From an uncultured Candidatus Saccharibacteria bacterium (GTDB lineage: Bacteria; Patescibacteriota; Minisyncoccia; Phycocordibacterales; UBA2100), in contig CAZOZG010000002.1 in the NCBI GenBank assembly GCA_964584225.1, forward strand, positions 5,127 to 69,126: 64,000 nucleotides of DNA, read 5' to 3'. Every line of letters starts with the position of its first letter. The first letter of the stretch is position 1. Of the stretch, positions 8,785 through 37,058 are shown one piece after another. The notes below the pieces were generated by a model that did not search any database, was not told where the DNA came from, and saw only the letters and a program-made list of their open reading frames with translations. A program made the position numbers and the translations under genes.

Positions 8785-10782
8785 TCAACCTTGTGCGGCC
8801 GCAGCTTGCTTGATCCACGCATCTTGATCGGCTTTGTTCGGATAGAGTGGCGCGAGCGTCTGTCGTGCGCCTGTCTCATCGCCGACCCACAGCTGCGCCT
8901 GCGCGTAGTATTGACGTGCTTGATCATTTTCCGGCAACTCTTCAAAGGCTTGCTTGAACGACGCGACTCCGGCTGCTTTGTCGCCAAGGCGGAATTGATT
9001 GGTGCCAAGTTGGTAGAGAATCGTTTGCTTCGCTGGTGAGAGTTTGTGTGCTTGCTCGAGTGCGATTTCTGCATCTTTATAATCGCCGTACGAATCCAGC
9101 AGCACACCTAAGAAAAGCGGAAAGCGCGCATCCAAGGGCGACGCCTGCATCTGCAACGTCATTTCTTGCGCCGCGGTCTCAAAGAAATTTTTCTTTGCAT
9201 CGGTTGAAATATTTGGATTACCTGCGATCTGCGCCGCGGCTTGAATGAGCTGTTCGCGCGCTTCTTGCGTGCCGTAGGTGCCGTACGCAATTGCTTGTTT
9301 GAAGTACGTGAGGTTTGTGTTGATATCAGATTGCTGCGCGAGAGCATTCAAGAGCGTTTTGTTCTCGAGATACGCATGTCCATTCACGTTCCATGCAGCG
9401 ACGCAAAACAGCACCAGCGCAGCGAGCGAGGCGTATGGCAAGAGATGCCGCGCCGAGAAAGACGTCTCGACAAGCGGCATCGTGCTCTCGTGCGTGCTCG
9501 CGCGCCACGCGATAAACGCAATCACACTCGTGAAGAGAATGTAGCTCGTAACGTTATCGAAGACGAAAAGATCGTGGAAGAAGTACGCGGCGAGTAATCC
9601 TGTGAGAATACTTTGCTCGGCAGCGCTAAAGACGTCGCGTCGCCACACAAGATAGAGTGCCGCAACAAAGATCGAGAGATAGCTCAGCAGTCCCAAGAAA
9701 CCGCCTGCAACGAGCCAGTCGAAGACAACGTCGTGCGTGCGATCAAACCACTGCTCTTGCCCATACATGCGTGGATCGTAGTACTTGTCGAACACAATCG
9801 CGTAGTTTTCTTGCCCCCAGCCCAAGAGCGGTCGCTCTTTCGCACCTTGCCACGCCATGCCCCAATTCAAGAAGCGCGCTTTCACCGTACTATCGGTGAG
9901 CGAAATTGATGAGAGGCGGTTCAAGAATCCGATGTTTTGTACAAACGCACTTTGACGATTGACGTAGATCAGTGCTCCTGCAACGACGAGTGCAACCACG
10001 ACACCTGCTGTCCACCACGCAGCTTTCGAGCGACGCGTCCGCACTGCGAAGAGAAAGAGCGCGATCAAGCCGCCACCGATAAGCCCGAGCGTCGTGCCGC
10101 GCGTGCCAGTGAAAAGGAGCGCCACCGTGTCGACAAAAATGACGATTGCATACCACGCCGACATCCAGCCGCGCATGCCCGCCTTTTCCTTTTGCCACGC
10201 ATTTGCCCAGAGCATCGCGGCGATGAAAATATTGAAAAGCATGTACGCTGCGAGATAGATCGGGTTGCCAAAGGTCGCGTCGATGCGCGCTGAAAGGCCG
10301 CCCGAGCCACCTTGCCCGAGAGCTGCATCCCCCAAAATCTGCGCGAAACCCCAGAAAGCAACCAAGACAGACAAGAGAAGCGACATTTCCCAAAAACGTC
10401 GCCAGAGCTTTTCCGTATTGAGCGTCGTATACGCAACGATGAAGTAGAGCAAGAGATGCATCTGCGTCACCCACCCATCCATGCGCTCGTAATTACTCCA
10501 AAAGCTTTTGAAGGGCACTGCGCCTTGTGCGTCCGCGATCGCGATGACGAGCACAAAAAGCGCAAACGCTCCCAAAAGCAAGGAACGCTTCGGCCAGTAG
10601 GCAGGATTACACAGTGCAAGCGCAAGCCACGCACATGCGATTAATTCAACGATGAGGCGGAATAGAAAATTCTTTCCGGTGATGAACGGAAAGAAAAGAT
10701 CGTAGGCGACGTAAAAGACAATGAAGGGAAGTGCGAAGACGCCAACGATGACGATGCCGCGTAGAAACTTCTCAAGCGTCAT
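8785..10782 (-). CDS. O-antigen ligase (Wzy_C) domain polytopic membrane protein with C-terminal TPR repeats.
   Basis: A 665-aa polytopic membrane protein matching the layout of the O-antigen ligase/Wzy_C family (multiple TM helices plus a large periplasmic loop). The C-terminal approximately 200 aa show a TPR-like pattern (AYLENKTLLNALAQQ...YYAQAQLWVGDETGARQ). Stop codon is TGA. Confidence 0.55.
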   Translation of the reverse strand: MTLEKFLRGIVIVGVFALPFIVFYVAYDLFFPFITGKNFLFRLIVELIACAWLALALCNPAYWPKRSLLLGAFALFVLVIAIADAQGAVPFKSFWSNYERMDGWVTQMHLLLYFIVAYTTLNTEKLWRRFWEMSLLLSVLVAFWGFAQILGDAALGQGGSGGLSARIDATFGNPIYLAAYMLFNIFIAAMLWANAWQKEKAGMRGWMSAWYAIVIFVDTVALLFTGTRGTTLGLIGGGLIALFLFAVRTRRSKAAWWTAGVVVALVVAGALIYVNRQSAFVQNIGFLNRLSSISLTDSTVKARFLNWGMAWQGAKERPLLGWGQENYAIVFDKYYDPRMYGQEQWFDRTHDVVFDWLVAGGFLGLLSYLSIFVAALYLVWRRDVFSAAEQSILTGLLAAYFFHDLFVFDNVTSYILFTSVIAFIAWRASTHESTMPLVETSFSARHLLPYASLAALVLFCVAAWNVNGHAYLENKTLLNALAQQSDINTNLTYFKQAIAYGTYGTQEAREQLIQAAAQIAGNPNISTDAKKNFFETAAQEMTLQMQASPLDARFPLFLGVLLDSYGDYKDAEIALEQAHKLSPAKQTILYQLGTNQFRLGDKAAGVASFKQAFEELPENDQARQYYAQAQLWVGDETGARQTLAPLYPNKADQDAWIKQAAAAQG

Positions 10783-10822: not shown

Positions 10823-11884
10823 TTAGAGCGGCTTGATCGTGACCGCTGATTTCTGATTTTTGAGCGCAGTGCGCAAGACCTCTATCACGCGCACGCCGCT
10901 TTCGATTGCGATCGGAGAATCTACAGGCTTCAGCTTCCCTTTCAGGATTGCGTCGATGTGTCGGACTTCACGATAAAAATCGTCGGGACGTTTTTTGTCG
11001 AAAATCTTCACATCTTCCTTTCCTTCGGCATCTTTCCATTTCACGACGTCGCCACGCGGGTCACCGTTGCAGTACCATTCGATGTAGCCCGCGTCGCCTT
11101 GGACGCGCGCCCACTTGCGGGTCGGTTGCGTCACGACATCTTGAATCACACGACCTACTTTTCTTTTGTCGGTGACGAAAGTGAATGCCGCAATCGCATC
11201 GTACTTCGTCTTGCCTTGCTTTTTCATATCGTAGATTGCAGTCATCGACTTCCATGTGCCGAGTCCTGCCGCGCGTGCGAAGAGTTGCCACAGGTGCAAT
11301 GCGTGTGAATGCTCGCCTGAAGCTCCACCACCGCGATCGATATAGCCGAGGTAGGTGTCCTCTGGACCTGAAAGCCACGGATGCGCTTTGAAAATGCCCG
11401 CCCAGTGCTCGCGAAATTCGACGTCGAGTGTGAGCACATCGCCGATCGGCTTTTTCTTGAGTAGATCAACGATGAAGGTGACCGCCTCCGCGACGCCGTG
11501 GTCGTAACCGACGAGAAGAATCGTCCCCTGTTTTTTTGCGGCAGTGACGAGCTCTTTCAATCCTTTGCCTTCTGGCCCGCACAGCGGCTTTTCAAGCAAC
11601 ATTAATTTCGGTTTGCCTTTCAGCTCCTCAAGCGCAACGCGCATGCGCACATCTGGCGGCGTGCCGATCATCACGATGTCGTATTTCCCTTTTGGCTCTT
11701 TGCCTGCGACGAATTGTTTGATAGATGAATCCCATTTTCCGTAGCGAGTCGGGTAAATGTCCTCGCGCATGCGCTGCAGTGCGGCTTGGTCGCGATCGGT
11801 CACGGTTACCTTCCATCCGATTCTGCGCGCCGCTTGCGCCAAGTGGTTTCCGATCGACCCCGCGCCGATAACTTTGGCGTTCAT
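10823..11884 (-). CDS. Gfo/Idh/MocA-family NAD(P)-dependent sugar oxidoreductase.
   Basis: Rossmann start KVIGAGSIGNHLAQAA and the family EKPL motif (LLEKPLCGP). Confidence 0.5.
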   Translation of the reverse strand: MNAKVIGAGSIGNHLAQAARRIGWKVTVTDRDQAALQRMREDIYPTRYGKWDSSIKQFVAGKEPKGKYDIVMIGTPPDVRMRVALEELKGKPKLMLLEKPLCGPEGKGLKELVTAAKKQGTILLVGYDHGVAEAVTFIVDLLKKKPIGDVLTLDVEFREHWAGIFKAHPWLSGPEDTYLGYIDRGGGASGEHSHALHLWQLFARAAGLGTWKSMTAIYDMKKQGKTKYDAIAAFTFVTDKRKVGRVIQDVVTQPTRKWARVQGDAGYIEWYCNGDPRGDVVKWKDAEGKEDVKIFDKKRPDDFYREVRHIDAILKGKLKPVDSPIAIESGVRVIEVLRTALKNQKSAVTIKPL

Positions 11885-11968
11885 GATGAAGGGATACTAA
11901 CAGCTGCAACACAATCAGCAAGTACTAAAAAGAAGAGGGCGCCCCGCAGGGCGCCCTCACAGTATTCG

Positions 11969-12532
11969 TCACGAGACTTCGTACTGCTCCAGATCCAGGA
12001 AAATATCATGCGCGATATGTTCCGCATCACGTGCAGCGTTTACAATTGTCGGCTGAATCTCCGGAGGCCACGGTGTTTGGATCGTGAGCGCCCAGTGATA
12101 CTGCTCTAGCGTTTTGATGGGCGACACGGAATTCTCCCGCGCGCGCATGGCGATGCTTTTTTTGATTTCCTCTTCGGAAGAAACTTCCAAGCGAAAGAAA
12201 CGCATCGGCACATTGCTGTGTGCTTGCGAGAATTGCAGCACCGGGTCTTTAAACTGCTGCCGCGAACACGTGCCTGAGAACACGATAGGCATGCCGCGGT
12301 GCAGCTGGGCGCTTGCTTCGCCACACGCAAGTTCATAGACGCGCGCCATGAGCGCAATCTCTTCCTCTTTGGGTAAGAGCTGCCCCGACGCATCCAAAAA
12401 ATGAGATCGACGCACCACGTCGACATCAATGGAGACTAGGTTCGAATGCTCGCTCATGTATTTGGCGACAGTCGATTTTCGATGTAGCGGCGGTCCTGTG
12501 AGGAACGCCACAAGAGGCCTATATTCAGGCAC
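11969..12532 (-). CDS. P-loop kinase-like (AAA_33/gluconokinase-like) small protein with a degenerate Walker A. Candidate sugar kinase.
   Basis: LVAFLTGPPLHRKST fits G-x5-KST rather than GxxxxGK[ST]. About 187 aa and alpha/beta-like. Confidence 0.3.
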   Translation of the reverse strand: MPEYRPLVAFLTGPPLHRKSTVAKYMSEHSNLVSIDVDVVRRSHFLDASGQLLPKEEEIALMARVYELACGEASAQLHRGMPIVFSGTCSRQQFKDPVLQFSQAHSNVPMRFFRLEVSSEEEIKKSIAMRARENSVSPIKTLEQYHWALTIQTPWPPEIQPTIVNAARDAEHIAHDIFLDLEQYEVS

Positions 12533-12577
12533 TGGATTCCCCCGCTGTTGTTGGTATGAACTATCCCGTACTCTGTC

Positions 12578-13219
12578 TTAGGACGCAGATTGTGTCAAGA
12601 TTTCCAACAACTCGCTCAATTGCGAAATCGATTTGATGCCTGTCCCCTCCCAGCGCGAGCCAAAGCCCACGAATTGACAACCAAACGTGTGCGCCGCATC
12701 TGCGTCGCCTTCGGTGTCGCCGACAAAAAGCGTATCCAAGACAGGCACATGCGCGTGCTGCACAATCCGCCCAAGATTTTCCACTTTGTTGCGCGGCGTT
12801 CCGTATATTCCTTTAAAAAGAGGTGCGACGCCAAGTGCGTGGATGCTTTCCTGCAGCACTTCTTCCGGCGTGAGCGAATTCACGTACAAAGGAATTTTCT
12901 GCGAAAGCACCGTCATGGCCTGCCGCGCATCATCCGACACTCTCAGTTGGCGCACGCGCTTATCGACGACTTCGCCGTATCTGCGGACATACTCAGCGAC
13001 TTTCGCGTCGATCGCGTCTGTCTCTCCCATGCGCTCAAAAACGCCGCGGATGATATCGGCTCGATTTCCGCGTCCTGTGAGATCGGCACGCGCAGAATCA
13101 ATCTCGCGTTTCGGCACGGGCTCACCAAATTCACTAAACATAAGAGAAAAGCCCTGCTGCTTGATGGGCTCCGAATCCACGATCACGCCGTCGAAATCAA
13201 GAACAAGTGCTTTGATCAT
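12578..13219 (-). CDS. HAD-superfamily hydrolase/phosphatase.
   Basis: HAD motif I MIKALVLDFDGVIVDSEP, and motif IV acidic residues in VGDTEGDADAA. Confidence 0.7.
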   Translation of the reverse strand: MIKALVLDFDGVIVDSEPIKQQGFSLMFSEFGEPVPKREIDSARADLTGRGNRADIIRGVFERMGETDAIDAKVAEYVRRYGEVVDKRVRQLRVSDDARQAMTVLSQKIPLYVNSLTPEEVLQESIHALGVAPLFKGIYGTPRNKVENLGRIVQHAHVPVLDTLFVGDTEGDADAAHTFGCQFVGFGSRWEGTGIKSISQLSELLEILTQSAS

Positions 13220-14767
13220 CTAGTCGAATTGATGCCGACCCCAGTTGTTAAGTTTTGTCTTTCGCTCTTCACGTGCCATTTTAGCAATTTTTGGATCTTC
13301 GTACATCGAGTCATCATTGTGGTGCGTCGTCGATATCTCTTCAAAAATCGCACCAGTTGTCGTCCAGAATTTATGCTTCACGCCGCGCTGAATGATTTGG
13401 AGATCGCCCGGGCGCAGCGTCTTCCGGCGTCCATCGAGTTCCATTTCCAATTCGCCCGCGAGCATATGAAATGCCTCTTCCTTTTTGAGGTGGTGATGAA
13501 AGGGATGTACCTGGCCCGGCAATTGAATGAGAATTTTCTTGCAGTACTCGCGATTGATGCAATCGATGATGACGACACCGTACTTGTGGAAATTTTCGAG
13601 CCCATAGTGATGCGAAAGTTCGACTTCAAATTCCGGCGTGATCGGCACGCCCGCTTCATTGAGCATACCTTTCACTGCGTGAATCGCTTGGTAGATTGTG
13701 TGCTTGCGAGAAAAGCCATCGACGCGCACTTTCTCGCTGACAGCTTCGTCTTTTTTATAATTCTTATCAGCGATTAAGCCGTTGAGAAGACGCCCACTGG
13801 GGAGCTGCCCTTTCTCGATCGGAAACGCAAAATAAACATCTGCCGCTTTGATCTCATCGCCCTTCTTGATCGGCTTTTTGGCGAAGACGCCGCGCATCAA
13901 CGACGCAAGATCTTCCTGCTCTTTCTTTTCGAGCTTTTTCTCGCGCGAACCCACCGCGTCCCTCGCGCGCTCCCATGCCTCTACCCATTTCTCGGTTTGC
14001 TCCGGCGTCGCGGAGTACGCATTGAGCTTTATTTCCGGCGTCGCGACACCAACATGTTTTTCATACATGCGTGCACCTTTCGCGTACGCCATCTGAATAT
14101 TCTCGACATTCTCTGGCGATTCGTGTGTTGAAAAACCGACGACCAGATTCGGGAAACGCTTTTTCAAAACGGTGATTTGTTCGAGCTGCAATTTCTCGGT
14201 GGGGGTCGGATAGATCGAGACACAATGCTGAATCGCAAAATGCACATAGCGGTGGTCGAAAAATGTCACGACGTCGTCGATGCGCTTCAGCGGCAGGCCA
14301 CCAAACGAGATGATCACGGGCTTTTTGGCTTCTGCGATTTTCTGCAGGAGTGGGAAATCGGTCGCCGATGCACTCGCGACTTTCAAGACGTCTGCACCGA
14401 GTCGATCCGCCGTTTCCACGGACTTTTCGTCGAAAGGCGTCACCATTACAATCAATTTTTCTTTGCGCGCCGCCGCGATCAGCTCTTTGAAGTGTTGTTC
14501 TGAAAGACGCGTGGAGAGAAATCGTGGCACGTGTTTGTTGTCGGTCTTTTTGAGATGCTTGGGGTGCACGAACGTATCAAGATCGCGGAACTGGAATTTA
14601 ATCGCTGCCTTCAGCTGGTGCTTTTTGGCAATCGCCCCGATCGCCTTGATGATTTTCTTGCCGTGCGCGACCGAGCCCTGATGGTTGTTGGCCATCTCAA
14701 AGGTAAAGAGGTCGTTGAAGTCGAAACGCTCTGTCGGCTCAAGTTGCATGCCGGCACTATGCATCAA
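13220..14767 (-). CDS. NeuB-family nonulosonic-acid (sialic-acid-type) synthase fused to SAF and a C-terminal cupin domain.
   Basis: NeuB-like TIM-barrel N-terminus (FDFNDLFTFEMANNHQGSVAHGKKII...AIKFQ), an SAF-like segment, then a cupin (QVHPFHHHLKKEEAFHMLAGELEMELDGRRKTLRPGDLQII). 515 aa against about 350 for a stand-alone NeuB. Confidence 0.65.
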   Translation of the reverse strand: MMHSAGMQLEPTERFDFNDLFTFEMANNHQGSVAHGKKIIKAIGAIAKKHQLKAAIKFQFRDLDTFVHPKHLKKTDNKHVPRFLSTRLSEQHFKELIAAARKEKLIVMVTPFDEKSVETADRLGADVLKVASASATDFPLLQKIAEAKKPVIISFGGLPLKRIDDVVTFFDHRYVHFAIQHCVSIYPTPTEKLQLEQITVLKKRFPNLVVGFSTHESPENVENIQMAYAKGARMYEKHVGVATPEIKLNAYSATPEQTEKWVEAWERARDAVGSREKKLEKKEQEDLASLMRGVFAKKPIKKGDEIKAADVYFAFPIEKGQLPSGRLLNGLIADKNYKKDEAVSEKVRVDGFSRKHTIYQAIHAVKGMLNEAGVPITPEFEVELSHHYGLENFHKYGVVIIDCINREYCKKILIQLPGQVHPFHHHLKKEEAFHMLAGELEMELDGRRKTLRPGDLQIIQRGVKHKFWTTTGAIFEEISTTHHNDDSMYEDPKIAKMAREERKTKLNNWGRHQFD

Positions 14768-14780
14768 AAATCACCAAAGA

Positions 14781-14818
14781 TCAAGGCGACGCCTTTAGGG
14801 ATCTTAAGGCGTCGCCTT
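14781..14818. promoter_or_regulatory. Intergenic hairpin with a 14-bp perfect stem between the NeuA-like stop and the NeuB-like start.
   Basis: CAAGGCGACGCCTT (14781..14794), loop TAGGGATCTT, AAGGCGTCGCCTTG (14805..14818). On the minus strand it is followed by ATCTTTGGTGATTTTTGA. Confidence 0.5.
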
Positions 14819-14822
14819 GCAT

Positions 14823-15560
14823 TTAGAGTTTCCGCTGTCGCTCGCGCAGCAGCATTTCTGCGAGACGAAAATCGAGTTCAGTATCAATATTGACCGAATG
14901 ATCGAGGGTCATCTCGAAATAGCCGAGGCGTTTCCCTGAAGTCGAGTGTTGTTTCAAAATCGTATCGCGACGCATCACATCCATCGCGCCCGTATGCACG
15001 TAGACTTTCGGAAAAAGTTGCCTCGGCAAATTGTGAGGCTCATCGTGACCCGTCACTTCTTTCGGCAAAAACGGCTCCAGGTGTTTCCCGTCTTTTGCGA
15101 TCCGCCACAGTTTGTACGGATGCTTCGGCGCTTCGTGAATTGGTCGTACCGCGTCGAGCGTCGCATCGTTCAAAAGTGTATCGATGCCGTGATCGATGTC
15201 GTCAGTGGTGCACAAGGGCGACGTCGGCGGCAGTCGCAGGACGACATCGGGTTCGTAGCCCTCTTTTTCTTTTAAAGTCTTGAGCGCGTGCGTGAGAAAT
15301 TCGACGTCGGTCGAACGGTCTTGAGAAATATGTTCTGGCCGCATAAACGGCACTTCGGCTCCAGATTCTTTTGCGACCTTTGCGATCTCTGTATCGTCCG
15401 TAGACACAATCACGCGCGTGACACTCTTCGATCCCTTCGCCGCCTCGATCATCCAGACGATCAAGGGCTTGCCGGCAATCATGCGAACATTTTTCCGCGG
15501 CAGGCCTTTTGAGCCACCGCGGGCTGGAATAACGGCGAGGATTTCCATATATAGCCGCAT
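14823..15560 (-). CDS. Acylneuraminate (CMP-nonulosonate) cytidylyltransferase family, NeuA/KdsB-like.
   Basis: MEILAVIPARGGSKGLPRKNVRMIAGKPLIVWMIEAAKGS matches the CMP-NeuAc synthetase N-terminal motif. An alternative ATG lies at 15548. Confidence 0.7.
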   Translation of the reverse strand: MRLYMEILAVIPARGGSKGLPRKNVRMIAGKPLIVWMIEAAKGSKSVTRVIVSTDDTEIAKVAKESGAEVPFMRPEHISQDRSTDVEFLTHALKTLKEKEGYEPDVVLRLPPTSPLCTTDDIDHGIDTLLNDATLDAVRPIHEAPKHPYKLWRIAKDGKHLEPFLPKEVTGHDEPHNLPRQLFPKVYVHTGAMDVMRRDTILKQHSTSGKRLGYFEMTLDHSVNIDTELDFRLAEMLLRERQRKL

Positions 15561-15580
15561 TATAGGCTCTTTCTCGGGTA

Positions 15581-15609
15581 TTGCAATAGATACGCATTCG
15601 TGTTAGAAT
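15581..15609 (+). promoter_or_regulatory. Sigma70-like promoter for the plus-strand gene at 15659.
   Basis: TTGCAA (15581..15586), 17-nt spacer, TAGAAT (15604..15609). GGAGG lies 5 nt before the GTG start, inside a 98-bp divergent spacer. Confidence 0.45.
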
Positions 15610-15658
15610 GCTGACCGCTTAAAGAGTCACAAAATCCACAGAAAGAACGGAGGTTCAC

Positions 15659-16660
15659 GTGAATATTTTCCTTGTATCGAACGACAAGGCCCCGACCGAT
15701 GCGTTCCTCAAACTCAGTCCTCACCTTATCGACCATGGACACAAAGTCAGCCATGCCGTTTTTGGTGGCGCCGGTGGCGGAGAGTGGGCTGACATTGCAC
15801 TTATAGGAATGTCGACGCCCGAAAAAAACGCTGAAATCGAAATCGCTGCGGCGCGCGAATGCATCCGTCTCGGTAAGCCATTCGGTTTCTACGCAGATGC
15901 GCATGGTGCGTGGACGCGGCCACACTTCGCGGAGTTCCGCGAAAAAGCCAGCTTCGTTTTCGTTGTCGCCGACGAGCCGGGCACCATGAAAATGTGGCCG
16001 AACGCCCGGATCATCAAAACGGGCAATCCGCTGTGGGCTCAGTACTTCAAGCCCGTCGACAGAAAAGCTGCTCGCGAGGCTATGTCGGCGTTCGACCAAG
16101 ATTTCGTCATCCTGTGTCCTGGTACGAAGAACAGGACACACAACTTGCTGGTCTGGAACGCAGTCATCCAGGCAGCGAAGGGCATACATACTGCACAGGT
16201 CGTCCTTTCACCGCATCCCGGCGATAAGACGGACCCAATGATCTATCAAGATCTCGCGCAACTCGCGGCGCAGGATGCTGTCTGCGTCGATATACCGCGG
16301 AACAAGACAGACGAGCTAGTCCCTGGGGCTGACGTCGTGATCAACGGCACATCCGTCCGCGTTCATGCAATTGCACGCGGAATTCCCGTGATCGACTACT
16401 ATGAGCCACTTTCGCAGACATGGCTCGAAAATGACACCGGCAAATCGAGAAGCTACTTCGCCGATTCGGGCGCCGTGCTTGGTTTGTACGGCAAACAAGC
16501 GAGCTGGCCTGCGCTTGCATCACTGTTCGATAAAGTCGCGAGAGATCCGAAGCTTCTGCAAAAGGGCCAGGAAGGTATCGTCGAAAATGTGTCTCAACAC
16601 GAGATGCTTGAGCGCATGCGAATCGTGCTCGAGCAAGTTGCTCAGTCGAAAGCTGCCTAA
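15659..16660 (+). CDS. GT-B-fold protein (MurG/PseG-like C-terminal domain). Candidate glycosyl- or sialyltransferase, or a nucleotide-sugar hydrolase.
   Basis: GTG start. The C-terminal segment PHPGDKTDPMIYQDLAQLAAQDAVCVDIPRNKTDELVPGADVVINGTSVRVHAIARGIPVIDY resembles the GT-B nucleotide-binding half. No confident family assignment. Confidence 0.3.
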   Translation: MNIFLVSNDKAPTDAFLKLSPHLIDHGHKVSHAVFGGAGGGEWADIALIGMSTPEKNAEIEIAAARECIRLGKPFGFYADAHGAWTRPHFAEFREKASFVFVVADEPGTMKMWPNARIIKTGNPLWAQYFKPVDRKAAREAMSAFDQDFVILCPGTKNRTHNLLVWNAVIQAAKGIHTAQVVLSPHPGDKTDPMIYQDLAQLAAQDAVCVDIPRNKTDELVPGADVVINGTSVRVHAIARGIPVIDYYEPLSQTWLENDTGKSRSYFADSGAVLGLYGKQASWPALASLFDKVARDPKLLQKGQEGIVENVSQHEMLERMRIVLEQVAQSKAA

Positions 16661-16705
16661 GCAGCACAACAAGAGGCGTCGGCCCATAGCCGACGCCTCA
16701 TTCTT

Positions 16706-18079
16706 TTACAACATTTCAAGAACCGCCTGCGCGACGCGTTCAGCCGATTTTCCGTCTACCTTATAAAGCATATCGTGTTTCAATACTTCTCTTTCTTTGC
16801 GTAAATACTCTGGATTTTCAAGAAACTTTTTGATTTCTGCTTCGAGTTCATCATGACTTTTCACAAGCGGCGCCGCACCGATCTGAGTGATGTGTTTGTA
16901 GTGATTGCGCTCATACACGCGCGCGACAGAATCCCAATACGACGGGTGATGATCGCCATCGTATCCAATCAAAATCACCGGCCTGTCATTTGCAGAGGCG
17001 TCGAGCGAGAGCGTCGACTCGGTGTTGATGACGACGTCGCTGTGCTTCAATGAATTTGCGAGATGTGCAATGTCTTTGTTGGTAAACGTCCACGCATACG
17101 TATTGCCAACGCCCATGTCGACCGAAAATTGCAGCTTATCAGAGAGATGCGTACCCGGTCGGTCGAAAATGAAGTGCTTCAATTTTAATTTTTCACTCGA
17201 ATCCGGATATTTCGGATGGAATCGCGCCAGAACCTGCAATGGTCCAAACCTTCCCTCCTCAATGCGCTTATCAAGCTCAATCATGATGTCGCTCGTAAAT
17301 GGTGTCTTCCAATCTCCAGGTACCGCAATCAAGATCATCCGCTTCTTGGGGTCACCACCGATGCCTGCGATGAATTGTTCGCGGGGCACGAAAATATCCT
17401 GTCGTGCATACACATCAAACTGCGGAAAACCGGTGATGACGATGTTTTGTGGCTTGTAATCGCCGAGCTCGATTGCCTCTTCTTTGTTGAACTCGTTGAA
17501 CACAAGTAAGCGATCCGCGCGCATGCGTGTAAATGCCTTGGTCGTCAGCACGTCCCAACTTTTCGCGGTCGTCGCCGTTTTCACGCCGTGTCGCTTCGCT
17601 TGCCGCATCAAGCGAAAATCTTCCGGCGAGAACATGTTGGGCGTGAAGACGAGATCAGGGTTGTATGTGTGAAAGAGATCCTCGCAGTAATCGTCAGGCG
17701 GCACCGTGTAGAGCCAGCGCAAAAATTCGCGCCACACGCGAAAGCGTCCAAGAAATCCGAAAACGCTGCCAACGCAAAATCGCCACAGCGGCCAGCCTTT
17801 GGAGCGCCACATATGCCGACGCAAGACAGCTGAGCGTGTCGGCAATGAATTCCATCCGATGAAATACCACAATCGCTCAGCAAAGGTCGTCGCTTCGGGA
17901 TGGCGTTCGATGAAGACGCGATCACTGCCGTAAGACGTGTGATAGTAGTCGAGACTGCCCTGCGCGCGGACGATGAGCACAAATCGATGCCCCGCCTGTT
18001 TCAAATATTCAAACGTGCCTGAGCGCAACACATTTTTCTCCGTGTCACCGTCGTAGACCGATATGAAAATGGTTTTCAT
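16706..18079 (-). CDS. TagF/KpsS-like GT-B transferase (CDP-alditol or CMP-sugar dependent family), tentative.
   Basis: Segments DIMIELDKRIEEGRFGPLQVLARFHPKYPD and VINTESTLSLDASANDRPVILIGYDGDHHPSYWDSVARVYERNHY resemble conserved blocks of CDP-glycerol glycerophosphotransferase / capsule-synthesis proteins. Confidence 0.3.
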   Translation of the reverse strand: MKTIFISVYDGDTEKNVLRSGTFEYLKQAGHRFVLIVRAQGSLDYYHTSYGSDRVFIERHPEATTFAERLWYFIGWNSLPTRSAVLRRHMWRSKGWPLWRFCVGSVFGFLGRFRVWREFLRWLYTVPPDDYCEDLFHTYNPDLVFTPNMFSPEDFRLMRQAKRHGVKTATTAKSWDVLTTKAFTRMRADRLLVFNEFNKEEAIELGDYKPQNIVITGFPQFDVYARQDIFVPREQFIAGIGGDPKKRMILIAVPGDWKTPFTSDIMIELDKRIEEGRFGPLQVLARFHPKYPDSSEKLKLKHFIFDRPGTHLSDKLQFSVDMGVGNTYAWTFTNKDIAHLANSLKHSDVVINTESTLSLDASANDRPVILIGYDGDHHPSYWDSVARVYERNHYKHITQIGAAPLVKSHDELEAEIKKFLENPEYLRKEREVLKHDMLYKVDGKSAERVAQAVLEML

Positions 18080-18804
18080 GGTTTTTGTGCGACGAGAATG
18101 TGCGAGACACCGAAAGGCAGATTGAGTCGGCGATTCACTGATCGCTCGACATCGATAACGTGCGCTAAGATGCCGTTGATCCAGGCAGGAATCCGCGACA
18201 AGCTGTTTGATAGTTTCTCGCCTTCAGGTTTTTTGTGATAGAAGCGCGCTACAAGCCATACCACCGGAAACATACAGATGTTCCAAAAGCCACTGTAGCG
18301 AATCTGCATGTTGTTGCGCGCAAAGAGTCCGACGAGTTCGCCACGCTTGTAGCGCCTGAGATGATGCCCGTAATCATCGTTTTCATTCCAGAGCGACGGA
18401 AACGCCGGCACCAATATGTAGGCCGAACCGCGCGACTTCAAGACGCGCGCGATCTCGGCAACCGTTTTCGTGTCGTCGATGTGTTCGAGTACGTCAGCGC
18501 AGACGATCGCGTCGACCGAATCACTGGGAAGCGGAATGTCTTCGGCTGAGGCAAGTAATGTTTCGTGATAGCCACGCGCACGCGCGTGTGCGAGCGCTTC
18601 TTCTGAAATATCGAGCCCAATCACTTTCTGAGCGTGAACGGCAAGGACGGGAAAATTCGCACCGACGCCGCATCCAAGATCCAATAGGACGCCGCGCTCT
18701 GCGGGAAAGCGCTCGAGCAAATCATTGAGGACGCGTCGGCGCGATACGTACCACCAACTCGTTTCTTCAAAGCCGGCAATTTCCTCGTGGCTATACGTTT
18801 CCAT
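18076..18804 (-). CDS. Class I SAM-dependent methyltransferase.
   Basis: Motif I LLDLGCGVGANFPVL, and post-I acidic residue VIGLDISEE. Confidence 0.7.
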   Translation of the reverse strand: METYSHEEIAGFEETSWWYVSRRRVLNDLLERFPAERGVLLDLGCGVGANFPVLAVHAQKVIGLDISEEALAHARARGYHETLLASAEDIPLPSDSVDAIVCADVLEHIDDTKTVAEIARVLKSRGSAYILVPAFPSLWNENDDYGHHLRRYKRGELVGLFARNNMQIRYSGFWNICMFPVVWLVARFYHKKPEGEKLSNSLSRIPAWINGILAHVIDVERSVNRRLNLPFGVSHILVAQKP

Positions 18805-19405
18805 GATCCTTCACGACGCGAAACATAAAGTGCACTTCTTCAAAGCCTCCGACCCAGAAACACCACACGCGTGAGCAGAAATAGGGCGAGAGGTTCGCGA
18901 AGAGATCAACGATCGAACCGAAGATGACACCAAACCAGTACTGATAACCAGCGAGTGTGATTCGCTTGAGATAGCGCTGCGCAAACCACGAGAGCCGCAT
19001 CGATTCTATTTTGAATTGAACTCCTTCGTAGCCGCCCTTAAATTTTGGATCAAAGTAAAGTGGGAAACTCACATCAAAACCGTGCTCGTGCTCCGGGTGA
19101 GAAAACCCGCGCGAGAAATGCGGCACACGAATCGAGACGAGTCCGCCGTTTTCCACGATCCGATGCAGCTCGCGCATCACCGCGAACGGCTTTTCGATAT
19201 GTTCCATCACGTGATCGGCTTCGACAAGTGAAAAACGATTGTCGGGAAATGGAAACGGCAGCTGATTGATGTTGTGCACGACGTCGGCGCCCACATTGGC
19301 TCGGAAATCCAAGTTGACATATCCGTCTTTCGGAAATTCACCACTCCCGAGATTGAGTTTGCGCGATTCCTCCGCGTGCATTGCGGGCATCGTAGCACAT
19401 CTCAC
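18791..19405 (-). CDS. Class I SAM-dependent methyltransferase (Methyltransf_11-like).
   Basis: LNLGSGEFPKDGYVNLDF...ADHVMEHIEKPFAVMRELHRIVENGGLV. Confidence 0.6.
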   Translation of the reverse strand: MRCATMPAMHAEESRKLNLGSGEFPKDGYVNLDFRANVGADVVHNINQLPFPFPDNRFSLVEADHVMEHIEKPFAVMRELHRIVENGGLVSIRVPHFSRGFSHPEHEHGFDVSFPLYFDPKFKGGYEGVQFKIESMRLSWFAQRYLKRITLAGYQYWFGVIFGSIVDLFANLSPYFCSRVWCFWVGGFEEVHFMFRVVKDHGNV

Positions 19406-21262
19406 CTATCGCATCCACGCGTCGTACCACAGCTGGAATGTCATTAGGGTCCACAATTTTTTGCGATGATCGCGCGTGCCGGATTCATGCTCGTGCAACA
19501 TACGCTGAATTGGCTCTGGTTTGAAAAAGCCACTGCGGCGCACCGAGTCGGTGGATAGCAATTGATGCGAGAGATCGCGCAATTCTTTCTGCAACCAGCG
19601 ACCAATTGGCACCCCAAAGCCTTGTTTTTTGCGCCACACATTTTCCAACGGCAATTTTTCACTCATGAGCCGCTTCAAAAGGTACTTGCCAGTAAGCCCG
19701 CGATATTTATATGAGTACGGAAGTGCAGAGACAAATTCCACGAGCGTATGATCGAGAAACGGTGCGCGCACTTCCAAGCCGTGCGCCATGCTCGCACGAT
19801 CGACTTTGACCAAAACCTGATCCATGAGGTAGGTGCGCGCGTATGACCATAAAAGGTCGTGATGAAATTGTTCTTTGTCTGCATGGATCGAAAAGAATTG
19901 ATCAAGGTGCGCATACGGTGACCGGCGTGCGGGAGTAATCAAAAGATCATTCGCCTCGCGATCATTGAACGCGCCGAGCCACTGTTGATGCCGATAGCGC
20001 GGATCGGTATCCGCGCCTTCGATAAATTTTTTGAGGACGAAATCTGCACTAAAATAGCCGTGACGGACAGGTAACGCATTGATCACAGGCTCGATGAGCG
20101 AACTGCGCAGGGCACGCGGAATTGCGCGATACCAGCTCACAAATTGTTCTGCACGAAAGGTCGGATAGCCAGCAAACAGTTCGTCGGCGCCGTCGCCGCC
20201 GAGCGCGACCGAGACGTGCTTTTTAGTGAAGGATGACAAAAGGTACGTCGGCAGCACCGACGCGTCGGCGAGTGGTTCATCGATGTAGCGAAACACTTCC
20301 GGAATGAGCTCGACGCAACGCGCGGAAGAAAATTGCTCTGCCGTATGCTCAACCCCGATTGTTTTTGCAGCGATTTTCGCATATGTAAGTTCGTCGAAAT
20401 CTGCATCGTCGAAACCGATCGAGAATGTCTTCACCGGTGCACGCGAGGTCTTTTTTGCGTAGTACGCGACCGTCGAGCTATCGATACCACCTGAGAGGAA
20501 CACTCCTAAGGGGACGTCGCTCATGAGGCGCTTTTCAACAGCGCGCGAGAGATGCCGATCGAGCATCTCTCGCGCGTGTTCAAATGAGATCGAGTGTGAT
20601 TGTCGCGACAACGACCAGTAAATTTCCTCTTGCGGCTCACTCCCCTTTTTCGAAACGACGTAGCCACCTGGCTGTACCTTGCGCACACCTTTGAAAATCG
20701 AATATGGCGTCGGAACGTATTCGTACGTGAGATACATGCGCACGGCATCCGGATCAATTTCTTTTTTGAATGCGGGGTGCTGCATCAACGATTTCAATTC
20801 GGAGCCGAAAATCAAGGTGTCGTCGAATACTCCCCAGTACAGGGGTTTCTTCCCCATGCGATCGCGCACAAGATACACGGTGTCGCCACGATGATCGTAG
20901 AGCGCGAAGGCGAACATGCCCTCGAGCTTTTCAAACGCTTTCGCCCCGTATCGCTCGAAGAGCGCAAGAATCACCTCGGTGTCGGTGTTGCTCGTGAATA
21001 CGTAGCCTTGAATTTCTTTTTTGAGTTCTTGGAAATTATAGATTTCGCCGTTGAAAATGATGGTCGTGTGGCCGCTCGCGCTCGTCATTGGCTGATGACC
21101 TGCTGCTGATAGGTCGATAATCGAAAGACGCGTGTGCGCAAAACCAATATGACCTGCATACCAGATACCTCGATCGTCCGGCCCGCGGCGACCCAATGCA
21201 TTCGTCATTTTATCGAGCGTCGCCGTGTCGCCCTTCCCGTAAAATCCGCCGATGCCGCACAT
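19406..21262 (-). CDS. asnB: Asparagine synthase (glutamine-hydrolysing) family amidotransferase.
   Basis: MCGIGGFYGKGD N-terminal nucleophile, and the SGGIDSS PP-loop. Confidence 0.85.
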   Translation of the reverse strand: MCGIGGFYGKGDTATLDKMTNALGRRGPDDRGIWYAGHIGFAHTRLSIIDLSAAGHQPMTSASGHTTIIFNGEIYNFQELKKEIQGYVFTSNTDTEVILALFERYGAKAFEKLEGMFAFALYDHRGDTVYLVRDRMGKKPLYWGVFDDTLIFGSELKSLMQHPAFKKEIDPDAVRMYLTYEYVPTPYSIFKGVRKVQPGGYVVSKKGSEPQEEIYWSLSRQSHSISFEHAREMLDRHLSRAVEKRLMSDVPLGVFLSGGIDSSTVAYYAKKTSRAPVKTFSIGFDDADFDELTYAKIAAKTIGVEHTAEQFSSARCVELIPEVFRYIDEPLADASVLPTYLLSSFTKKHVSVALGGDGADELFAGYPTFRAEQFVSWYRAIPRALRSSLIEPVINALPVRHGYFSADFVLKKFIEGADTDPRYRHQQWLGAFNDREANDLLITPARRSPYAHLDQFFSIHADKEQFHHDLLWSYARTYLMDQVLVKVDRASMAHGLEVRAPFLDHTLVEFVSALPYSYKYRGLTGKYLLKRLMSEKLPLENVWRKKQGFGVPIGRWLQKELRDLSHQLLSTDSVRRSGFFKPEPIQRMLHEHESGTRDHRKKLWTLMTFQLWYDAWMR

Positions 21263-28017: not shown

Positions 28018-28083
28018 ACGATGTGTTCACCACTATACCTTCTTTTGGTACTCGAGGAAATACAGCGCGTCAGAGTCGTGTCT

Positions 28084-31627: not shown

Positions 31628-31660
31628 AGTGATACCGACAGTAAAGCCTAGAACGAGCGA

Positions 31661-35952: not shown

Positions 35953-35953
35953 G

Positions 35954-36979: not shown

Positions 36980-37058
36980 ATCGACCCACTATACCCTCTC
37001 GCGTGCGTTTCGAAAAGAGCCTGTATTTGAGCGCTTATACATGCTATGCTAGCCCGTC

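Follow-up and report, generated by a model that had tools for sequence, protein, structure and literature searches.

A conserved gene set in a candidate-phyla-radiation bacterium, most likely for a CMP-activated acidic sugar without amino groups

We analyzed a 64,000-nucleotide stretch of DNA (the window) from an uncultured Candidatus Saccharibacteria bacterium. This candidate-phyla-radiation (CPR) host most likely encodes a conserved, unstudied gene set for a CMP-activated, sialic-acid-like acidic sugar that carries no amino groups. The module is distinct from the NeuC/NeuB/NeuA, pseudaminic and legionaminic routes. We put at about even the chance that it makes and activates a non-aminated, Kdn-type 3-deoxy-2-ulosonic acid by a Kdo/Kdn-like route that uses different proteins; the product would probably be Kdn or a redox-tailored relative of it. 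The initial annotation had described a CMP-nonulosonic acid module with a phosphatase step and no NeuC. All the genes it named were present, and this core of its reading held, but its HAD subfamily, its use of a kinase as part of the signature and its placing of the oxidoreductase merely beside the module did not. No NeuC (Epimerase_2) or DegT aminotransferase was found among the approximately 55 window open reading frames (ORFs) scanned.

The central protein (13220 to 14767, minus strand; 515 amino acids) combines a NeuB-type synthase (residues ~20 to 280), a SAF-like domain (~293 to 343) and a cupin (~358 to 515) that resembles D-lyxose/D-mannose isomerases. The public gene call has 514 amino acids, so translation probably begins at the ATG at 14764. 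Pfam detected NeuB (141.5 bits, 4e-41), a weak SAF match, Cupin_2 (2e-11) and Lyx_isomer (26.7 bits against a cutoff of 20.8). Residues E24, K57, Q59, K129, S132, S154, Y186, S213, H215, E236 and H238 align with Neisseria meningitidis NeuB; judged from this alignment, the domain is of the PEP-condensing synthase type, with its PEP- and metal-binding and catalytic residues intact. The nearest PDB entry to this domain was 3g8r (259 bits), a structural-genomics entry named "probable spore coat polysaccharide biosynthesis protein E," which, unlike the window fusion, has 350 residues and no cupin. NeuB, PseI and SpsE structures reached at most 73 bits. The domain fell outside the NeuB/NnaB equivalog (148 bits against a cutoff of 400) and the PseI equivalog (127 against 340), which does not bear out the clustering with synthases of nonphosphorylated substrates that would have counted against the initial annotation.

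The fused C-terminal domain, left unnamed in the initial annotation, is a sugar-isomerase homologue. Its profile matched YdaE (2y0o) over chain residues 7 to 170 of 175 (E value of 2.4e-13), and a Foldseek search with its AF2 model (pLDDT 87) returned D-lyxose isomerases in all of the top 10 positions (rmsd 1.7 to 2.3 Å over 165 to 172 columns). The likeness to D-lyxose/D-mannose isomerases (YdaE, Thermofilum 7nzo and Escherichia coli O157 Z5688 3kmh) covers the full length in both fold and sequence. It includes the His/His/Glu/His metal site (H424, H426, E431 and H465) and the catalytic lysine (K429), all of which are invariant. Those isomerases are free-standing, catabolic enzymes of free sugars, whereas the cupin here forms the C terminus of a biosynthetic synthase and ends in an additional basic tail that is strongly conserved (PRExRKTKLxNWGRHQFD, with R499, R502 and K503). 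Three further basic residues (R406, K410 and R461) are invariant in the fusion family, and YdaE lacks them at the aligned positions; these residues and the tail would suit a phosphate. A fused sugar isomerase accounts for the origin of the aldose substrate. The cupin would act before NeuB, since aldose-ketose chemistry is impossible on a 3-deoxy-2-keto acid.

The NeuB-cupin fusion is present in 80 other species-level genomes, and its carriers include CPR, Nitrospirota, Gemmatimonadota, Verrucomicrobiota, Planctomycetota, Acidobacteriota, Bacteroidota and Proteobacteria; the gene set is known from at least 10 further phyla. Three partners recur at the fusion loci: a cytidylyltransferase (73 of 80), a Gfo-like oxidoreductase (65 of 80) and a HAD-IA phosphatase (60 of 80), in nearly all loci within 2 kb and in the same direction. 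In Nitrospira, for example, the operon runs Gfo, NeuB-cupin, HAD, cytidylyltransferase. The adjacency is kept across more than 10 phyla while the remainder of the locus changes, and the partners are also joined by three kinds of domain fusion, which link the cytidylyltransferase in one chain to NeuB-cupin (P0061), to the Gfo-like protein (P0159) or to a HAD domain (L066, L067, L078, L079 and L082). This arrangement lies far beyond chance. The notion that the HAD, Gfo-like and P-loop proteins are neighbors by accident, serving other sugars in a general polysaccharide locus, draws on the unrelated sugar genes that fill ~16.7 to 53 kb of the window (GT2, GT4 and PMT_2 glycosyltransferases and dTDP/GDP-sugar enzymes); it could apply to the P-loop gene, but for the other partners, including the cytidylyltransferase, it is contradicted by the conserved adjacency and the fusions, and as a whole we find it hardly credible.

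The oxidoreductase (10823 to 11884, minus strand) is a divergent NAD-dependent protein of the Gfo/Idh/MocA fold, with an N-terminal PF01408 domain (32.5 bits; cutoff, 24) and no sequence relative in the PDB below an E value of 0.01. Its AF2 model (pLDDT 93.6) has the Gfo fold, and Foldseek aligned it with YjhC, AFR, GenD2, levoglucosan dehydrogenase and RgNanOx (TM 0.72 to 0.80) at 13 to 18% identity; GxGxxG, D30 and E98-K99-P100 are conserved. Far from lying merely beside the module, it belongs to the core and is linked to the synthase more tightly than any other partner: the homologues score 284 to 611 bits, lie at a median gap of 4 nucleotides and are co-directional in 65 of 65 loci. Such a core enzyme suggests that the product is not plain Kdn, since we know of no Kdn route that requires an oxidoreductase. 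It would contribute an extra NAD-dependent redox step, most likely tailoring or epimerization of the ulosonate around activation; supply of the ketose is a less likely role.

The phosphatase gene (12578 to 13219, minus strand; HAD_2, 49.9 bits) adjoins the fusion at a median gap of 0 nucleotides and, in many operons, sits between the synthase and cytidylyltransferase genes. All four catalytic motifs are intact, with D8, D10, S115/T117, K145, D168 and D172 invariant, as are K20 and R53 of the cap. The protein is a C1-capped HAD-IA enzyme of the COG0546/phosphoglycolate phosphatase type and not a member of the C0 KdsC/Kdn-9-P phosphatase subfamily, a result that weighs against the initial annotation, by its own rule, and against the route proposed below. 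Its best NCBIfam models were phosphoglycolate phosphatases, each below cutoff, and its match to animal NANP was generic (E value of ~1e-6, rank above 30). The cytidylyltransferase (14823 to 15560, minus strand; CTP_transf_3, 91.6 bits) is a CMP-ulosonate synthetase of the NeuA/PseF type, which scored 139 bits with the PseF model (cutoff, 206) and no more than 64 bits with KdsB models. Five loci have neither the Gfo-like nor the HAD-IA gene, and in every one of them a small HAD domain is fused to this enzyme. The displacement of HAD-IA by a non-orthologous phosphatase ties dephosphorylation to the activation step, and the fusions argue for the sequence ulosonate phosphate, ulosonate, CMP-ulosonate. 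Together with the HAD-IA adjacency, they indicate that the phosphatase is an integral step.

From these domain identities, intact active sites, linkages and fusions, we infer in which order the steps run, that the intermediate is phosphorylated, which sugar is made and what the oxidoreductase does. The proposed route would lead from a ketose phosphate through an aldose phosphate, an ulosonate phosphate and the ulosonate to the CMP-ulosonate. The cupin, a homologue of Mn/Zn-type D-lyxose/D-mannose isomerases, would convert a central ketose to a manno- or lyxo-configured aldose; its substrate would most likely be a phosphate ester, as in fructose-6-phosphate to mannose-6-phosphate. The fused NeuB domain would condense this aldose irreversibly with PEP, which would draw the unfavorable isomerization forward. 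The HAD phosphatase would then remove the terminal phosphate, the NeuA/PseF-like enzyme would form the CMP-sugar, and a TagF-like glycosyltransferase, with a Wzy_C-TPR protein in CPR, would place the sugar on a surface polymer or protein.

A route through free sugars, with no ulosonate phosphate, is possible, although we consider it rather unlikely. A free ketose would arise from its phosphate through the HAD enzyme, or else be made by the Gfo-like enzyme; the cupin would turn it into mannose or lyxose, and NeuB would condense the free aldose. The structures nearest to the cupin are indeed free-sugar enzymes crystallized with D-mannose and D-fructose (7nzq, 7nzp and 3mpb), and to our knowledge all characterized D-lyxose isomerases and bacterial NeuB, PseI and LegI act on nonphosphorylated sugars, which counts against a phosphorylated route. 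Moreover, the closest relatives of the HAD protein are broad sugar-phosphate and phosphoglycolate phosphatases. HAD-IA was not seen in 14 of 50 loci with full flanks, 10 of which had no recognizable phosphatase nearby, four cytidylyltransferase-HAD fusions being counted as phosphatases. The production of Kdn in Serratia marcescens with only neuA and neuB in the locus (PMC9000132) fits as well. Against this stand the position of the HAD gene between synthase and cytidylyltransferase, its fusion in five loci to the very enzyme that uses the dephosphorylated ulosonate, and the basic residues and tail of the cupin, which may bind a phosphate.

The module has several known counterparts. Kdn synthesis in Bacteroides thetaiotaomicron uses Kdn-9-phosphate synthase (BT1714), Kdn-9-phosphate phosphatase (BT1713) and CMP-Kdn synthetase, and animals make Neu5Ac through Neu5Ac-9-phosphate with NANS, NANP and CMAS. 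Both share with the module a NeuB-family synthase, a HAD protein, a NeuA-family cytidylyltransferase, the absence of NeuC and, if the intermediates here are phosphorylated, the logic of the route. In the module, by contrast, the HAD protein is C1-capped HAD-IA and not of the C0 KdsC-like family, the synthase is fused to an isomerase, and a Gfo/Idh/MocA oxidoreductase belongs to the core. The Kdo pathway (KdsD, KdsA, KdsC and KdsB) matches the proposed route reaction by reaction through its four steps, namely, ketose phosphate isomerization, PEP condensation, dephosphorylation by a HAD enzyme and CMP activation. Here, however, the isomerase is a cupin rather than a SIS protein and is fused to the synthase, the synthase is NeuB rather than KdsA (families generally regarded as unrelated), the phosphatase is HAD-IA where KdsC is HAD-IIIA of the same superfamily, and the cytidylyltransferase is NeuA/PseF-like and not KdsB-like. 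The S. marcescens KL1/KL2 capsule NeuB (~746 amino acids) carries a COG1082 sugar-phosphate isomerase/epimerase domain (PMC9000132). As in the window, a NeuB fused to a sugar-isomerase-type domain is clustered with a NeuA-type cytidylyltransferase and no NeuC, and the demonstrated product is Kdn, an ulosonic acid lacking nitrogen, which sets a precedent for the proposed route. That fused domain is a xylose-isomerase-like TIM barrel instead of a cupin, and no Gfo-like or HAD gene has been reported there. A metagenomic representative of this TIM-type design (L087) shared only 29% identity with the window NeuB domain over 259 aligned residues.

A diamino product of the pseudaminic or legionaminic type, with its hexose precursor supplied by genes elsewhere and the cupin acting as an epimerase, seems to us improbable. 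PseF is the top model of the cytidylyltransferase, the glycosyltransferase matches two families associated with Pse/Leg loci (BFO_1060 and TIGR04396), and PseB/PseC-like genes (Polysacc_synt_2 plus DegT) adjoin the fusion in a few loci (L044 and L068). Nevertheless, none of the PseI, NeuB and PseF scores comes near its equivalog cutoff, the cupin resembles D-lyxose isomerases specifically and not RmlC or FdtA, and the window module and most of the 80 loci lack dehydratase, aminotransferase, acetyltransferase and hydrolase genes. In L083, the module adjoins a separate canonical NeuB, NeuC and NeuA set, which argues that the two sets make different sugars.

The small P-loop protein (11969 to 12532, minus strand; AAA_33-like, 24.1 bits; cutoff, 27), counted by the initial annotation in the signature, is an optional, lineage-specific accessory found in 3 of 80 fusion loci. 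Its family comprises 115 cluster representatives among 1.84 billion proteins. D36, D38, R126 and R130 are conserved, and the Walker A motif is GPPLHGK[ST], in which the window protein has R18 (CGA) in place of the conserved Gly. GGGGGA, a Shine-Dalgarno-like motif 5 nucleotides upstream of a GTG, supports the 187-amino-acid form. In L087 and L088, the gene lies next to a NeuB-AP_endonuc_2 fusion and a CMP-transferase. A GC-rich, terminator-like hairpin with a T-tail (11935 to 11958, minus strand) separates it from the Gfo-like gene, with a 10-bp stem of 9 G-C pairs followed by TTCTTTTT. A bidirectional one (16673 to 16699; stem of 11 to 12 bp, 9 G-C pairs) lies between the convergent genes at 15659 to 16660 (plus strand) and 16706 to 18079 (minus strand); overall, the region holds no more such sites than expected from shuffling.

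The latter gene encodes the TagF-like (Glyphos_transf) glycosyltransferase (PF04464, 36.4 bits; cutoff, 22.1), a candidate CMP-ulosonate transferase or polymerase. It scored 55 bits with the BFO_1060 family (cutoff, 200), and its homologues occur in 33 of 80 loci, every one co-directional. The plus-strand gene is real and encodes a conserved CPR-only protein (homologues in L002, L003, L004, L006 and L009), but its earlier label, PseG/MurG-like, is unsupported, with no match in Pfam, NCBIfam or PDB sequences. An overlapping ORF (15560 to 16189, minus strand) had no homologue in any locus and is probably spurious. On the other side of the module, a gene at 8785 to 10782 (minus strand) encodes a Wzy_C (O-antigen-ligase/O-oligosaccharyltransferase-like) membrane protein that carries TPRs at its C terminus (Wzy_C, 75.5 bits; TPR_19). 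In CPR, this protein probably uses the glycan at a later step, and its homologues were found beside the module in 7 of the 80 scanned loci and in L083. Pfam also identified putative accessory tailoring genes on the minus strand, namely, a SAM methyltransferase (18076 to 18804), a methyltransferase-like ORF (18791 to 19405) and an AsnB-type amidotransferase (19406 to 21262). Of the 80 loci, 15 have an AsnB homologue close to the module, and 23 have methyltransferase matches, mostly weak.

Six genes on the minus strand and one on the plus strand occupy the interval 10823-18079, which the initial annotation had read as a CMP-nonulosonic acid module working through a phosphorylated intermediate. 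The 515-aa protein encoded at 13220-14767 (minus strand), referred to here as the NeuB-cupin fusion, combines a NeuB domain with a weak SAF match, Cupin_2, and Lyx_isomer. The same strand encodes a 245-aa cytidylyltransferase (14823-15560; CTP_transf_3, PF02348, 91.6 bits versus a cutoff of 22.6), a 213-aa HAD protein (12578-13219; HAD_2, 49.9 bits), a 187-aa protein with an AAA_33-like P-loop (11969-12532; 24.1 bits, below the Pfam cutoff of 27), and a 353-aa protein with a Gfo/Idh/MocA N-terminal domain (10823-11884; PF01408, 32.5 bits versus a Pfam cutoff of 24), which we call the Gfo-like oxidoreductase. In agreement with the earlier assignment of a TagF-like GT-B protein, the 457-aa product of 16706-18079 (minus strand) matched Glyphos_transf (PF04464) with 36.4 bits, above the cutoff of 22.1; its score for the BFO_1060 family, 55 bits, fell short of the 200-bit cutoff. 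The absence of NeuC was likewise borne out, as a scan of approximately 55 larger ORFs in the window found neither Epimerase_2 nor a DegT aminotransferase. The names carried by homologues (Minisyncoccia, Kaiserbacteria, Uhrbacteria, and the like) put the window in the Candidate Phyla Radiation.

A real gene lies on the plus strand between the cytidylyltransferase and TagF-like genes (15659-16660). Its 333-aa product has homologues in five related loci, while the minus-strand ORF that overlaps it (15560-16189) had none when these loci were searched. The label PseG/MurG-like had to be dropped for this protein: Pfam and NCBIfam gave no match, a six-sequence profile found nothing in the PDB below an E value of 0.15, and none of these searches indicated similarity to GT28, PseG, or MurG. 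Between the convergent 333-aa and TagF-like genes there is a strong, GC-rich, bidirectional hairpin (16673-16699). In a scan for promoters and terminators, site counts did not rise above the shuffle expectation.

To find relatives of the fusion, we scanned one genome per species and obtained 285 genomic stretches. The best 80 of these carry the full-length fusion with 47 to 61% identity and come from the Candidate Phyla Radiation (CPR), Nitrospirota, Gemmatimonadota, Verrucomicrobiota, Planctomycetota, Acidobacteriota, Bacteroidota, Elusimicrobia, and Alpha- and Deltaproteobacteria. A cultured carrier is Rhodocytophaga aerolata KACC 12507 (Bacteroidota), which has a minimal two-gene version. 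We then used the window proteins to search six-frame ORFs within 10 kb of each of the 80 fusions. The cytidylyltransferase was recovered in 73 of the 80 loci, the Gfo-like oxidoreductase in 65 (284 to 611 bits; always co-directional), and the HAD protein in 60 (median gap 0; co-directional in 59). The TagF-like transferase was found in 33 loci and the 333-aa protein in 5. Nitrospira has a clean four-gene operon in the order Gfo-NeuBcupin-HAD-CMPt, CMPt being the cytidylyltransferase. The conserved unit therefore consists of four proteins: the synthase-isomerase, the cytidylyltransferase, the Gfo-like oxidoreductase, and the HAD protein. The oxidoreductase, which had been placed beside the module, is indeed there; its role, however, is not peripheral, as it is the tightest partner of the synthase (median gap of 4 nt).

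De novo clustering of the neighboring ORFs, in which single linkage merged fused stop-to-stop ORFs, gave only one further widespread neighbor, a generic SDR epimerase/dehydratase cluster (37 loci) that we judged nonspecific. A KpsF/GutQ-type isomerase was also considered as a general partner and rejected, being confined to the R. aerolata locus L078. Immediately after its NeuB-cupin gene, that locus has genes for a KpsF/GutQ-family arabinose-5-P isomerase (11532-12527 of the locus; 273 bits, exceeding the subfamily cutoff) and for a Wzm/Wzt ABC transporter, an arrangement seen in this locus only. The Nitrospirales loci L047 to L065 (e.g., L052, 3579-8778) keep three more genes upstream of the four-gene operon. 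A class I/II aminotransferase is encoded in 14 loci, an 817-aa protein carrying an ELM1-like glycosyltransferase domain in 11, and a protein of approximately 470 aa that matches no family in 18.

The NeuB domain matched PF03102 with 141.5 bits (cutoff, 22.1) over profile positions 12 to 241 of 241, and it did not reach the NeuB/NnaB equivalog (TIGR03569; 147.8 bits versus a cutoff of 399.65). Clustering with pseudaminic-type synthases had been named as an observation that would speak against the initial annotation; the PseI equivalog (TIGR03586) was not reached either (127.5 bits versus a cutoff of 340.25). The closest solved relative was 3g8r (259 bits), a structural-genomics entry without an assigned function, whereas structures of NeuB, PseI, and SpsE scored at most 73 bits. 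We know of no PDB entry for a Kdn-9-P synthase of the Bacteroides thetaiotaomicron BT1714 type. We take the metal- and PEP-binding residues of Neisseria meningitidis NeuB to be E25, K53, Q55, K129, S132, S154, Y186, S213, H215, E234, and H236. In an alignment of 18 diverse family members, the equivalents E24, K57, Q59, K129, S132, S154, Y186, S213, E236, and H238 are invariant, and H215 is nearly so (kept in at least 90%). T110 is also among the kept PEP- or metal-binding residues in the alignment with the N. meningitidis enzyme and is invariant or nearly so. The retention of these residues, the low equivalog scores, and the proximity to 3g8r together argue that the domain is an active PEP-condensing synthase of a separate clade.

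The C-terminal 160 residues of the fusion matched Lyx_isomer (PF07385) with 26.7 bits (cutoff, 20.8), and this match covers profile positions 83 to 123 only. A profile of the cupin aligned with residues 7 to 170 of the 175-residue chain of Bacillus subtilis YdaE (2y0o; E value, 2.4e-13), and also with the Thermofilum D-lyxose isomerase. When the cupin's AlphaFold model (pLDDT, 87) was submitted to Foldseek, the ten best PDB matches were all D-lyxose isomerases (2y0o, 7nzo/p/q, and 3kmh/3mpb), with an rmsd of 1.7 to 2.3 Å over 165 to 172 columns and 18 to 27% identity. D-mannose or D-fructose is present in several of the matching D-lyxose isomerase structures. The His/His/Glu/His metal site (H424, H426, E431, and H465) and K429, the lysine of the HxHxxKxE motif, are invariant in the family alignment. 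Profile and model thus agree in suggesting a D-lyxose/D-mannose-isomerase-like domain and not a generic cupin. Because a 3-deoxy-2-keto acid offers no substrate to an aldose-ketose isomerase, the cupin would, on chemical grounds, have to act before condensation, converting a ketose to a manno- or lyxo-configured aldose. Fusion with the irreversible PEP condensation would draw an unfavorable isomerization forward.

In the HAD protein, the catalytic motifs DxD, S/T, K, and DxxxD are all intact (D8, D10, S115/T117, K145, D168, and D172 in 21 sequences), and the cap has two invariant basic residues, K20 and R53, in the same set. Approximately 95 cap residues separate motifs I and II, which makes the protein a C1-capped HAD-IA enzyme. 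The best NCBIfam models were HAD-IA/phosphoglycolate phosphatases, far below cutoff, and a 21-sequence profile placed COG0546/phosphoglycolate-type phosphatases first (2ah5; E value, 1.6e-18). Animal NANP (2gfh, 4knw, and 2w4m) was matched over its full length at E values of about 1e-6, behind more than 30 other HAD-IA proteins. The proposed kinship with Kdn-9-P/Kdo-8-P phosphatases (KdsC/YrbI; HAD-IIIA, capless C0) did not hold up, since a cap is present and KdsC (1j8d) was matched only partially (E value, 9e-5). Both the cap and the profile ranking place the protein outside this subfamily, and the family to which it belongs does not reveal its substrate.

The cytidylyltransferase reached neither the PseF equivalog (TIGR03584; 139.2 bits versus a cutoff of 205.7) nor the KdsB equivalog (TIGR00466; 44.5 bits versus a cutoff of 155.2). 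Its fusions link the members of the unit: P0061 (747 aa) is a single CMPt-NeuB-cupin chain, and P0159 (569 aa) joins the cytidylyltransferase to the Gfo-like oxidoreductase. Five loci (L066, L067, L078 from Rhodocytophaga, L079, and L082) lack both the Gfo-like and the HAD-IA genes, and in all five the cytidylyltransferase is long (330 to 370 aa). The last approximately 100 residues of these long forms contain the HAD motifs FCFDIDGV, LFTARG, and FGKPAADFYIDDR, and this tail weakly matches the TIGR01689 capsule-biosynthesis phosphatase and HAD-IIIA models. A phosphatase of another HAD subfamily would here replace the free-standing one, joined to the very enzyme that uses the dephosphorylated acid. 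The minimal two-polypeptide version holds exactly the isomerase, synthase, phosphatase, and cytidylyltransferase. We regard these CMPt-HAD fusions as the strongest evidence in this analysis that the phosphatase step would be intrinsic to the pathway and come just before CMP activation. Read in this way, the fusion implies that the ulosonate would first arise as a phosphate, just as it does in the Kdo (KdsC) and Kdn (BT1713) pathways.

According to the model to which these data led us, the cupin would convert a ketose phosphate, most simply fructose-6-P, to an aldose phosphate, which the NeuB domain would condense with PEP to an ulosonate phosphate. The HAD protein would then release the ulosonate, and the cytidylyltransferase would activate it to the CMP-ulosonate. 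Redox tailoring dependent on the Gfo-like oxidoreductase would take place somewhere along the route, followed by transfer by the TagF-like enzyme and, in CPR, also by a Wzy_C-TPR protein. We hold this sequence of steps with roughly even confidence. In the main alternative, the phosphatase would act first, leaving free sugars to the isomerase and the synthase, and the characterized relatives of these two enzymes do use free sugars; the CMPt-HAD fusions and the gene order speak against this, not decisively, and we consider it rather unlikely. A diamino product of the pseudaminic or legionaminic type is very unlikely, given that the precursor genes are absent, that the equivalog scores are low, and that a Parcubacteria locus (L083, 5678-14124; GCA_019661965.1) has a canonical set beside the module. 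In that cluster, NeuB-cupin, HAD, and a CMPt-Gfo fusion occur together with a canonical NeuB (262 bits to NeuB_NnaB), an Epimerase_2 protein (NeuC), and a second cytidylyltransferase (NeuA) only a few genes away. Judged by their gene content, the two sets evidently would make different sugars, giving two CMP-ulosonic acids in one CPR genome. Set beside the neighbor counts in the 80 loci, a chance neighborhood of the core genes is excluded.

The Gfo-like oxidoreductase is very divergent, and no sequence relative was found in the PDB below an E value of 0.01. Its model (pLDDT, 93.6) has the Gfo/Idh/MocA fold and superimposed with TM scores of 0.72 to 0.80 on more than 50 structures of that family in Foldseek. 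Escherichia coli YjhC was the best match, followed by 1,5-anhydrofructose reductase, GenD2, levoglucosan dehydrogenase, and RgNanOx, at 13 to 18% identity throughout. Since YjhC, 1,5-anhydrofructose reductase, GenD2, levoglucosan dehydrogenase, and NanOx score alike, we rejected an assignment of function from this ranking. The motifs GxGxxG (G7-x-G9-x-x-G12) and EKP (E98-K99-P100) are present, with G9, G12, and E98-K99-P100 invariant in the family alignment. D30, an acidic residue after strand 2, is conserved and suggests NAD as the cofactor. YjhC and NanOx carry out a transient C4 oxidation on sialic acid derivatives. Because of this chemistry and the CMPt-Gfo fusion, we favor by analogy a tailoring or epimerizing step on the ulosonate around its activation; supply of the ketose is a possible role that we do not favor. 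A second Gfo-family gene in the window (28084-28857, minus strand) is a 257-aa ORF with C-terminal Gfo/Idh/MocA domains and only a Rossmann fragment, so either its start is mis-set or it is truncated.

To our knowledge, the established Kdn routes require no Gfo-like oxidoreductase, and for this reason the product may not be plain Kdn. We tentatively raise the possibility that the compact isomerase-synthase/phosphatase/oxidoreductase/cytidylyltransferase assembly makes an undescribed CMP-activated ulosonic acid instead. This could be a stereoisomer or keto derivative of Kdn made by the Gfo/Idh/MocA partner. It could also differ in chain length, either C8 from xylulose-5-P via lyxose-5-P or C10 from sedoheptulose-7-P via glycero-manno-heptose-7-P.

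The module shares with known CMP-ulosonic acid pathways the combination of synthase, HAD phosphatase, and cytidylyltransferase. Not described in the literature that we searched are the fusion of NeuB to a D-lyxose-isomerase-like cupin, the divergent Gfo/Idh/MocA partner in the core, and the interchangeable HAD types. In the full-text literature (NeuB, nonulosonic acid, or Kdn with cupin, MocA, or CPR/Patescibacteria), we found no description of a NeuB-cupin fusion, and a large phylogeny of nonulosonic acid synthases makes no mention of cupin, fusion, or 3G8R. The Streptomyces teichulosonic (Kdn) acid cluster is named in papers as SCO4873-4882. A protein search returned 5,749 protein-cluster matches to the fusion family at an E value of 1e-5 or lower. 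Database names for these are generic ("N-acetylneuraminate synthase family" or "cupin" only), and many genomes have therefore probably been wrongly scored as sialic acid producers.

Sialic acid-like sugars govern the recognition of bacterial surfaces by hosts, phages, and partner cells, and CPR/Patescibacteria live attached to host cells. If correct, the model would add a third widely distributed route to such sugars, beside the NeuC/NeuB and Pse/Leg routes, and a start from central sugar phosphates would suit the minimal metabolism of CPR/Patescibacteria. The assembly is common in CPR and occurs in at least 10 other phyla; the widespread module may make an undescribed sugar, and a novel product would mean a widespread, overlooked bacterial surface sugar. 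The cultured R. aerolata carrier and the clean Nitrospira operon make the prediction directly testable.

The P-loop protein was found near the fusion in only 3 of the 80 loci. As a single sequence it had no relative in NCBIfam or the PDB; a word-indexed search returned only itself, and an exhaustive one returned 115 cluster representatives. The public gene call is a 162-aa protein that begins at Met26 and lacks the P-loop (12457-12532). The GTG at 12532 is preceded, at a distance of 5 nt, by GGGGGA, which resembles a Shine-Dalgarno element, and alignments with homologues begin at residue 3; both favor the 187-aa form. The family Walker A motif is GPPLHGK[ST] and the window copy reads GPPLHRKS: codon 18 (12479-12481) is CGA (Arg) in place of the GGA (Gly) kept in at least 90% of the family. 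One other member, P0256, shares this change, and a protein with R18 may be catalytically impaired or atypical. The family conserves DxD (D36 and D38) and the lid arginines R126 and R130, and its profile has weak similarity to adenylate, shikimate, and gluconate kinases. The term kinase-like is thus reasonable, but the gene falls outside the conserved module.

On two metagenomic contigs, L087 (3157-10749) and L088, a homologue (P0248) clusters with a 626-aa NeuB-SAF-AP_endonuc_2 fusion, a cytidylyltransferase, an SDR, and an aldo-keto reductase; four other homologues (P0242 to P0245) come from contigs no longer than about 2 kb and have no gene context. This fusion has the architecture of the Kdn-yielding NeuB of Serratia marcescens (PMC9000132); identity between the NeuB domain of the metagenomic fusion and that of the window is only 29%. 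Fusions of NeuB with sugar isomerases of non-homologous fold have thus arisen at least twice. The P-loop family is tied recurrently but loosely to isomerase-fused NeuB pathways, as an accessory and not a defining component. In L087, a 359-aa protein adjoins the P-loop gene; the idea that it might be a hidden Gfo-like protein was rejected (hhalign probability, 0.3%). In the window, a strong, GC-rich, terminator-like hairpin with a T-tail (11935-11958) follows the P-loop gene, separating HAD and Gfo-like genes that would otherwise be contiguous.

Other glycan genes surround the module. Directly after it, 8785-10782 (minus strand) encodes a Wzy_C (O-antigen ligase/O-oligosaccharyltransferase-like) membrane protein with C-terminal TPRs. 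It accompanies the module in L083 and in 7 of the 80 loci, the latter all from CPR-type assemblies. For a CPR cell, which presumably has no LPS, this suggests en bloc transfer of a glycan to protein or to a wall polymer. Two AsnB-type glutamine amidotransferase paralogues are encoded in the glycan region (19406-21262, minus strand; 39528-41300, plus strand). AsnB lies near the module in 15 of the 80 loci, which suggests a possible amidation of the acidic sugar. A second sugar block (26836-38321) comprises an NDP-hexose 2,3-dehydratase, a glucose-1-P nucleotidyltransferase, a 4,6-dehydratase, a GDP-mannose 4,6-dehydratase, and two C-methyltransferases (26836-28017 and 37059-38321). This block suggests branched or deoxy sugars; for a CPR genome, these would be unusual. 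In the 268-aa product of 35146-35952 (minus strand), a cytidylyltransferase-like nucleotidyltransferase domain is joined to the C-terminal cupin of mannose-6-P isomerase, which places mannose-6-P metabolism close by. Finally, a 609-aa ORF (53105-54934, minus strand) with a TrwB/VirD4-like type IV secretion coupling domain adjoins peptidoglycan Mur ligase genes.
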